From Escherichia coli (GTDB lineage Bacteria; Pseudomonadota; Gammaproteobacteria; Enterobacterales; Enterobacteriaceae): a stretch of 64,000 bases of DNA. The stretch is from the NCBI RefSeq assembly GCF_003018115.1, contig NZ_CP027457.1, one strand, 5' to 3'. The translations under genes were made by a program, and so were the position numbers. The notes under the pieces were generated by a model. That model saw only the letters and a list, made by a program, of their open reading frames with translations, was not told the DNA's origin and made no database searches. Shown here piece by piece: positions 17,602 through 18,361 of this stretch; position 1 is the stretch's first letter, and every line of letters starts with the position of its first letter.

Positions 17602-17978
17602 GAAGCTGACCAGACAGTCGCCGCTTCGTCGTCGTCCTCTTCGGGGGAGACGGGCGGAGGGGAGGAAAGTCCGGGCTCCATAGGGCAGGGTGCCAGGTAA
17701 CGCCTGGGGGGGAAACCCACGACCAGTGCAACAGAGAGCAAACCGCCGATGGCCCACGCAAGTGGGATCAGGTAAGGGTGAAAGGGTGCGGTAAGAGCGC
17801 ACCGCGCGGCTGGCAACAGTCCGTGGCACGGTAAACTCCACCCGGAGCAAGGCCAAATAGGGGTTCATAAGGTACGGCCCGTACTGAACCCGGGTAGGCT
17901 GCTTGAGCCAGTGAGCGATTGCTGGCCTAGATGAATGACTGTCCACGACAGAACCCGGCTTATCGGTCAGTTTCACCT
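17602..17978 (+). ncRNA. rnpB: RNase P RNA component (M1 RNA)
   Basis: Recognised directly: gaagctgaccagacagtcgccgcttcgtcgtcgtcc...cggcttatcggtcagtttcacct, 377 nt, type A RNase P RNA. Confidence 0.95.
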
Positions 17979-17987
17979 GATTTACGT

Positions 17988-18017
17988 AAAAACCCGCTTC
18001 GGCGGGTTTTTGCTTTT
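17988..18017 (+). terminator. rho-independent terminator of rnpB
   Basis: aaaaacccgc-ttcg-gcgggtttttgctttt hairpin plus T-run immediately 3' of M1 RNA. Confidence 0.75.
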
Positions 18018-18030
18018 AGAGGGGCAGAAA

Positions 18031-18124
18031 GATGAATGACTGTCCACGACGCTAGACCCAAAAGAAAGCGGCTTATCGGTCAGTTTCACCTCATGTACGT
18101 AATAAATCGTTCCGGCGGGTTTCA
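18031..18124 (+). repeat. degenerate direct repeat of the rnpB 3' end plus terminator
   Basis: gatgaatgactgtccacgac...cggcttatcggtcagtttcacct...ccggcgggttt repeats 17930..18017 about 101 bp downstream. Confidence 0.65.
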
Positions 18125-18148
18125 GACTGTTGAGTGCGCTTTATTCAT

Positions 18149-18247
18149 GCCGGATGCGGCGTGAACGCCTTATCCTGCCTACAAAAGCACGCAAATTCAA
18201 TATATTGCAGAGATGGCGTAGGCCTGATAAGCGTAGCGCATCAGGCA
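18149..18247. repeat. REP pair (BIME-like)
   Basis: gccggatgcggcgtgaacgccttatcc and gcgtaggcctgataagcgtagcgcatcaggc REP units in opposite orientation. Confidence 0.7.
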
Positions 18248-18361
18248 TTTTTGCGGTTGCCATCAGTTTCAAACCCGCGTCGATAAGTTTTTGCTTTTGG
18301 TGCACAGGGTAAGATGAATATCTACGGTATTAATAATAGACTTTGTAAGAAGTTATTAAGT

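Follow-up and report, generated by a model that had tools for sequence, protein, structure and literature searches.

The window analysed here, a 64,000-nucleotide stretch of Escherichia coli DNA, carries the locus garK-rnpB-yhaC. The gene rnpB, encoding M1 RNA, is preceded by the end of garK at 17569 and by a promoter-like site at 17566-17594 found by a scan, and it is faced by the convergent gene yhaC. A genome comparison showed that positions 17560-18420 are 100% identical to E. coli strain F9792, in which RefSeq also annotates rnpB. The spacer between rnpB and yhaC measures 383 nt in the window, versus 613 nt in K-12 MG1655, and the features that fill it are listed in Table 1.

The window M1 differs from that of K-12 at three positions, 155, 162 and 213 (window 17756, 17763 and 17814). 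The changes at 155 (G to A) and 162 (C to T) lie on opposite sides of one stem, which goes from CCCGCGCAAGCGGG to CCCACGCAAGTGGG, and the one at 213 is a loop change, T to C relative to K-12. On the other side of the spacer, yhaC and yhaB (18321-20200) are AT-rich, with a GC content of 0.31-0.35 versus 0.54 for garK. Only fragments of both are left in E. coli ZH063, where rnpB is found near tdcR. This composition, together with the fragmentation in ZH063, suggests that a variable islet lies beside the repeat.

Table 1. Features of the rnpB-yhaC region, in window coordinates
Feature	Position	Strand	Remarks
rnpB (M1 RNA, RNase P RNA class A)	17602-17978	+	377 nt; Rfam RF00010, 319 bits, E=1e-104
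Copy 1	17929-18029	+	101 nt; last 50 nt of M1, 8-nt trailer, terminator T1, tail AGAGGGGCAGAA
12-bp core CTTATCGGTCAG	17959-17970	+	inside the real rnpB 3' end; empty site
T1, predicted intrinsic terminator	17986-18017	+	hairpin 17986-18013, core AAACCCGC-TTCG-GCGGGTTT, then U-rich run
Copy 2, pseudo-3' end	18030-18124	+	ortholog of K-12 copy 4, the last before the REPs
Insertion in copy 2	18051-18062		12 nt, GCTAGACCCAAA
M1-like 3' end of copy 2	18063-18091		AGAAAGC in place of AGAACCC; then trailer
Second core CTTATCGGTCAG	18072-18083	+	inside pseudo-copy 2
Decayed terminator of copy 2	18103-18124
REP element 1 (GCCGGATGCGGCGTGAACGCCTTATCCTGCCTAC)	18149-18182	+	one mismatch to the pattern; 5 further copies, also in the window
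Inter-REP linker	18183-18217	.	sub-threshold Rfam ES036 match, 18183-18225
REP element 2	18218-18246	-	inverted relative to REP 1; exact match, further copy at 35870
Remnant unit	18263-18311	+	alignment z=8.6-10
AGATGAATA	18312-18320	+	9-nt start of another, truncated unit; adjoins the AT-rich yhaC region
yhaC	18362-19549	-	converges on rnpB

Degenerate copies of the rnpB 3' end

Copy 1, which starts at nucleotide 328 of M1 (window 17929), has the same layout as copy 1 of K-12, and the distance from its start to that of copy 2, 101 nt, is that found in K-12. In the repeat search, the first 21 nucleotides of copy 2 (18030-18050) were identical to M1 over 21/21 positions (17929-17949) and, past the 12-nt insertion, 51/60 positions were shared between 17950-18009 and 18063-18122. 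Local alignment of the two copies gave a score of 92, against 13.8 +/- 2.0 for 2000 dinucleotide shuffles. The first-pass annotation had described this segment as a degenerate repeat of the rnpB 3' end and its terminator, and had named in advance the result that would overturn the description, namely a similarity no better than chance once the shared hairpin is left out. Without the hairpin (17929-17985 versus 18030-18098), the score was still 69 against 12.7 +/- 2.1 (z=27), none of the shuffles reaching it, so that the similarity does not stem from the hairpin and the description stands.

The shorter remnant proposed to lie after the REP pair was likewise recovered, within a few bases of the coordinates first given. 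It consists, in order, of TCAGTTTCA, a fragment of the M1 3' end, a 15-nt deletion, half a terminator (AAACCCGC without its 3' arm), the run GTTTTTGCTTTTGG and the distal tail TGCACAGGGTA. When 18258-18322 was aligned to the succession of terminator, tail and start of the next unit, the score was 35 against 13.4 +/- 2.1 (z=10), and the part following the hairpin reached z=6.9 by itself. The distal tail terminates the array in every E. coli allele, one-copy alleles included, and AGATGAATA was found in all the E. coli alleles inspected.

Tandem Repeats Finder reported no repeat for the array of the window, as there are fewer than two full copies and an indel separates them. Two other candidate features were rejected. 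The apparent inverted repeat flanking the REPs (18115-18132 and 18261-18278) is made mostly of the palindromic arms of the terminators, and its complementarity in K-12 is only 78%. A 42-aa ORF beginning with MTVHDARPKRKRL (18036-18164), running from copy 2 into REP 1, is in a frame that is not conserved in other genera.

Terminators

A simple terminator scan missed T1, and folding energies were compared with those of shuffled sequences instead. T1 folds at -19.4 kcal/mol on the plus strand (z=-5.4), and at -15.7 kcal/mol on the minus strand (z=-2.2), where the hairpin stands before UUUUU; judging from these energies, T1 may be bidirectional. The hairpin region of copy 2 (-7.1 kcal/mol, z=+0.7) lacks a U-run and folds no better than shuffles, and the remnant has neither a hairpin (z=0.07) nor a U-run behind a stem. 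A terminator hairpin with its U-run is thus found in copy 1 only, and not in each unit of the window array; the last copy of K-12 is equally degenerate. By folding, T1 is the only terminator of this array still predicted to work. The first-pass annotation had suggested that the partial copies could form alternative 3' ends. For the window allele the folding results lend no support to this suggestion, and since the hairpins of copy 2 and of the remnant are lost, we consider such ends unlikely in this strain, although read-through ends stabilised by the REPs are conceivable; in strains having more units, ends at the extra copies are plausible.

Elsewhere, extra units have predicted terminators that fold strongly: -21.6 kcal/mol for K-12 T3 and -19.7 kcal/mol for the terminator of the Klebsiella pseudo-copy. 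Those of Salmonella pseudo-copies are likewise intact. Over all the loci collected, a predicted terminator was kept in 47/53 distinct internal pseudo-copies versus 29/56 last copies. The rnpB terminator was seen in two forms, a short one with a 4-nt loop and one with a longer stem and a 6-8-nt loop, such as AAAACCCGCCAGCGTAAACTGGCGGGTTTT. Both occur in Escherichia (L008, L009, L010 and L012-L014 of our locus collection) and in Salmonella (L017), sometimes within one array.

The REP pair

Two REP elements in inverted orientation do lie between copy 2 and the remnant, as had been noted. REP 1 overlaps a sub-threshold Rfam match to naRNA4 (18138-18179). The linker holds, on the minus strand, the motif CAATATATTGAAT, a candidate IHF site one mismatch off the IHF consensus YAANNNNTTGATW. 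From its sequence, the inverted pair with this predicted IHF linker looks like a BIME. The REP family counts about 35 copies per genome and is also repeated within the window; the REP part of the query accounts for the 174,457 places matched by the window query in 5,425 genomes. Positions 32792 and 35870 each hold a single REP, and four copies (GGCGGATGCGGCGTGAACGCCTTATCCGCCCTAC) form a tandem cluster on the minus strand at 55603-55933, with a spacing of about 100 bp. IS621 targets REPs, and in E. coli AMSHJX01 a copy of this IS110-family element sits at the border of REP 2, at a place equivalent to window 18214-18220 approximately.

Comparison with K-12 and copy number in E. coli

Repeats 3' of rnpB are reportedly an early finding in K-12, described by Reed and colleagues in 1982, and Sakamoto and colleagues are said to have reported repeated sequences there in 1983. 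A literature search on repeats in the rnpB flank, or on rnpB together with yhaC, returned nothing relevant; the primary papers of 1982-84 were outside its reach. In K-12 MG1655, rnpB's own copy is followed by two 113-bp units with intact terminators, a degenerate last copy, the REP pair, the remnant and AGATGAATA. Copy 2 of the window aligns column for column to K-12 pseudo-copies 2-4 and corresponds to copy 4, the last one, which means that the two internal 113-bp units are absent from the window. The expectation that copy number here might differ from K-12 was therefore correct. The real copy has 12 nt fewer than a pseudo-copy, hence the spacing of 101 rather than 113 nt after copy 1. Where M1 has the P4-forming strand AGAACCCGGC, pseudo-copies read AGAAAGCGGC and, by our own reading of the M1 structure, this change would make them unable to replace the real 3' end.

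Allele classes were assigned from the rnpB-yhaC distance between two unique anchors, in 60 genomes spread over the ranking. The classes are defined by length, sequence being verified for representatives only, and total copies include rnpB's own. The one-copy class and the K-12 type (4 copies + REP) were each found in 16/60 genomes, 11 of the 16 one-copy genomes being without most of yhaC. The window type, 2 copies + REP, accounted for 10/60 genomes, 3 copies + REP for 6/60 and 5 copies + REP for 1/60. Alleles without REP had 2 copies (5/60, O157:H7 included) or 3 copies (1/60), and the remaining 5/60 were disrupted or other alleles. The sequences that were compared confirm alleles for each total from 1 to 5 copies; some have the REP pair and others lack it. 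One-copy alleles keep the distal tail and AGATGAATA, from which we infer that they result from collapse of an older array and are not the ancestral state.

With a 61-nt query, pseudo-copies were detected in 3,673/5,426 complete E. coli genomes, at 8,283 places, and none in the other 1,753/5,426. Carriers have 1-8 of them (median 2), all chromosomal and none elsewhere in the genome. K-12 was counted at 3 pseudo-copies, matching expectation, and the window at 1. With 0-8 pseudo-copies among strains, the locus is a variable-number repeat with a large unit, and the window stands at its low end.

The attachment core and the flk islet

The 12-bp core CTTATCGGTCAG, present in both copies of the window, is found at both junctions of a genomic islet in four of the loci collected (L036, L057, L094 and L117). 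An insert of 7.7-7.8 kb stands directly behind the real end of rnpB in two metagenome contigs, L036 and L057. Behind a pseudo-copy, an insert was seen once only: it measures 9.4 kb and lies in L094, a metagenome contig of a different lineage. From sequence, the core inside copy 2 could thus act as a secondary attachment site.

Beside rnpB, the L036 insert has a gene for a tyrosine recombinase; it also encodes YagK/YfjJ, a resolvase-type recombinase, flagellin and a phase-1 flagellin repressor, and contains an IS3. In E. coli H7 (L117, NZ_CP010171.1) the islet occupies 9487-18680, after garK and rnpB, and carries a 486-aa integrase, flagellin, the repressor and IS elements; past it come the terminator, two pseudo-copies, the REP pair, the remnant and yhaC. 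Feng and colleagues, in 2008, reportedly placed the flk islet between yhaC and rnpB, which agrees with this gene order. Islets of flk type also encode an invertase-like recombinase, and a variant (L118) adds a gene with a nucleotidyltransferase domain. Insertion of the islet swaps the last nucleotides of M1, from TTTCACCT to CTTCAACT. The insert described here is the flk genomic islet (Feng et al. 2008, J Bacteriol 190:4470, cited in PMC3378880).

A junction query matched 16/5,426 genomes over at least 80% of its length at at least 99% identity; among the matches listed (13 of those 16), the match overlaps the integrase and rnpB, and the integrase abuts the real gene. Among the matches listed at about 91% identity, one proved on inspection to be a related islet. 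The window itself contains no flk islet, rnpB and yhaC lying within 383 nt of each other.

The right arm of the islet resembles M1 from AGATG, where the repeat unit begins, with about 62% identity when aligned by eye. The arm is without the 12-nt insertion, so pseudo-copies are not scars of this islet. Phage records gave no match extending past the terminator hairpin, save for mislabelled Salmonella chromosomal records, and no viral contig with a pseudo-copy or the rnpB 3' end was found. An Enterobacter roggenkampii 'plasmid' (NZ_CP109732.1, L020-L022) with phage tail genes beside rnpB was left out of the evidence on phage sites, because it appears to be an assembly chimera of chromosomal segments. 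This 90-kb record combines the chromosomal gar, infB, nusA and ftsH genes with the phage tail genes. There, rnpB has a junction end of islet type but lacks the integrase, pointing to a left end that has decayed.

Arrays in other genera

One genome per species was scanned for pairs of M1 3' ends separated by 80-110 nt. Arrays were found in six records: Klebsiella pneumoniae, Kosakonia oryziphila, Phytobacter massiliensis and three from Escherichia, namely Escherichia whittamii, Escherichia sp. E1V33 and a divergent E. coli. Three further cases were mislabelled chromosomal records, with 6 pseudo-copies in Salmonella Senftenberg, 0 in S. houtenae and one, truncated, in K. aerogenes. Another 94 loci came from a metagenome scan, and among them the middle segment takes 27 forms.

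In every lineage, the trailer and terminator of the pseudo-copies are of the lineage's own type, which points to ongoing homogenisation within arrays. Across genera, the pseudo-3' end hardly varies over its 60 nt, while changes saturate the spacer beside it. For the 18 nt that are specific to pseudo-copies, identity to E. coli is 18/18 in Salmonella, 16/18 in Klebsiella, 14/18 in Phytobacter and 10/18 in Kosakonia. Trailer and tail of E. coli and Salmonella share only 6/22 positions, a significant difference from the 18/18 of the specific segment (Fisher p=1.5e-6). Conservation of the pseudo-copy-specific segment to this degree would not be expected of a purely inert relic, and no reading examined here accounts for it.

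Interpretation

The window most likely contains a contracted allele of the known tandem repeat that follows rnpB, in which the extra copies are relics without terminator function. The unit is a copy of the last 50 nt or so of M1, altered by the 12-nt insertion and by the P4-strand changes, and continued by a trailer, an intrinsic terminator and a short tail, for 113 nt in all (120-121 nt with the longer hairpin). The allele series suggests that copy number shifts through unequal homologous recombination or replication slippage between units. Such a contraction would have left rnpB's own copy with T1, plus one pseudo-copy whose terminator has decayed, followed by the inverted REPs at the distal end of the array and a partly deleted last unit. 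Transcription of rnpB is expected, from the folding predictions, to end at T1, and the precursor would be trimmed as in K-12. Copy 2 would still offer the 12-bp core apparently used by the flk-islet integrase. The feature is already known, and the window represents a common natural allele, ordinary among E. coli strains; what the survey adds are population numbers, a broader range of taxa and a connection with the flk attachment core.

It is possible, though we think it unlikely, that the array is a selected fail-safe, whose tandem and perhaps bidirectional terminators both halt strong transcription of rnpB and keep transcripts of the converging yhaC from running into it; the allele of the window would then be a weakened version that depends on T1 and on the REP hairpins. 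Arrays persist in at least 5 genera, and 89% of the distinct internal pseudo-copies, from many lineages, keep predicted terminators, as would be expected from selection. The strong folding of K-12 T3 and of the Klebsiella terminator, the perfect stems of both the short and the long hairpin forms in Escherichia and Salmonella, and the minus-strand hairpin of T1 before UUUUU are also in keeping with this proposal. However, about one third of E. coli genomes (1,753/5,426) and S. houtenae are without any pseudo-copy, which argues that the extra terminators are dispensable, and the second terminator of the window is dead according to folding. Moreover, homogenisation with T1 by recombination could preserve hairpins without selection. 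We find it improbable that pseudo-3' ends are tied to site-specific integration, either as scars of islets that target rnpB or as secondary (decoy) attachment sites where the flk-type integrase could insert and spare the end of an essential gene. Islets of 7.7-9.4 kb flanked by CTTATCGGTCAG do occur at rnpB in L036, L057 and H7, and at a pseudo-copy in L094. They carry a 486-aa tyrosine recombinase beside rnpB together with flagellin and the phase-1 flagellin repressor, and their right arm is M1-like (by eye, about 62%) from the very AGATG that starts the unit; a mobile source could also explain why the pseudo-copy-specific segment is conserved across genera. Yet the islet arm lacks the 12-nt insertion, so this islet is not where pseudo-copies come from, and what stands before each of the pseudo-copies inspected is a terminator with its tail and not DNA of an islet. 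Neither phage nor viral contigs supplied a pseudo-copy or an rnpB 3' end, and a single natural insertion at a pseudo-copy was seen, the real gene being abutted among the matches listed (13 of 16).

Two proposals would have the units expressed. A regulatory RNA produced by read-through, whose pseudo-3' end mimics the 3' strand of M1 (P1, P2) and acts on nascent M1 or its partners, is very improbable. It would fit the near invariance of the 60-nt pseudo-3' end next to a saturated spacer and, in our own reading, the resemblance of the A-rich stretch, hairpin and U-tail to the 3' part of an Hfq-type sRNA. Folding of the units is nevertheless not superior to that of shuffles (window copy 2, z=+1.65; a K-12 unit, z=-1.5), the middle segment has 27 variants across lineages, and a third of E. 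coli genomes have no array. The scan for promoter-like sites found none in the units on either strand, which also counts against such an RNA. That each unit encodes a small basic protein is barely conceivable. The K-12 unit does read as MNDCPRRYTQKKAAYRSVSPGLRKNPLRRVFAFGGAER followed by a stop, for 37 codons, with a Shine-Dalgarno-like GGAGG and an ATG 9 nt on, and its stop overlaps the ATG of the next unit (ATGA). No frame is conserved, however: a 1-nt deletion flips that of Klebsiella, Kosakonia has a stop after 9 codons, a T to G change ends that of window copy 2 after 7 codons (MNDCPRR), and it is the nucleotide sequence that is conserved across frameshifts. Finally, the pseudo-3' ends might be an old conserved module of Enterobacteriaceae, kept both as spare terminators and as spare attachment sites that protect the gene end from integrases targeting rnpB, such as that of the flk islet, with the pseudo-copy-specific segment as the functional part. 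Its range would cover Escherichia, Salmonella, Klebsiella, Kosakonia, Phytobacter and many further lineages; we give this proposal little credence.

With the window read as a contracted allele carrying relic copies, some practical points arise. Copy 2 should not be annotated as a second rnpB fragment or gene. A variable repeat with a large unit (0-8 extra copies) can confuse short-read assembly beside an essential gene. These few hundred bases, which combine the target of the flk islet with a REP that IS621 can enter, form a small hot spot of genome change.

Comparison with known systems

With the rnpB 3' repeats of K-12, the window shares the locus, the unit start AGATGAATG (M1 nt 328), the 12-nt insertion, the distal degenerate copy, the REP pair and the remnant. 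It differs by the absence of the internal units that bear the intact terminators T2 and T3, and by private substitutions such as GCTATACCC to GCTAGACCC. T1 itself, as 'rnpBT1', serves as a terminator part in synthetic biology (Cambray et al. 2013, PMC3643576). The window has this same terminator, K-12 differing only just past the U-run (TTTTAGAGG in the window versus TTTTGGAGG), and here it is the sole predicted working terminator of the array. Like the REPs and BIMEs of enterobacteria, the window pair consists of two inverted elements of about 30-34 nt around a linker, where an IHF-like site is predicted, and it shows nothing unusual. Compared with strains that carry the flk islet, the window has an empty target with cores at 17959 and 18072, use of a pseudo-copy as target having been seen once only, in L094. 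None of seven primer pairs from the ms series used in VNTR typing (MLVA; PMC8215070) maps to the window with at most 2 mismatches. In having units of about 113 nt arranged head to tail, with from 0 to 8 extra ones depending on the strain, the locus resembles a minisatellite or VNTR, but here the first unit belongs to an essential RNA gene.
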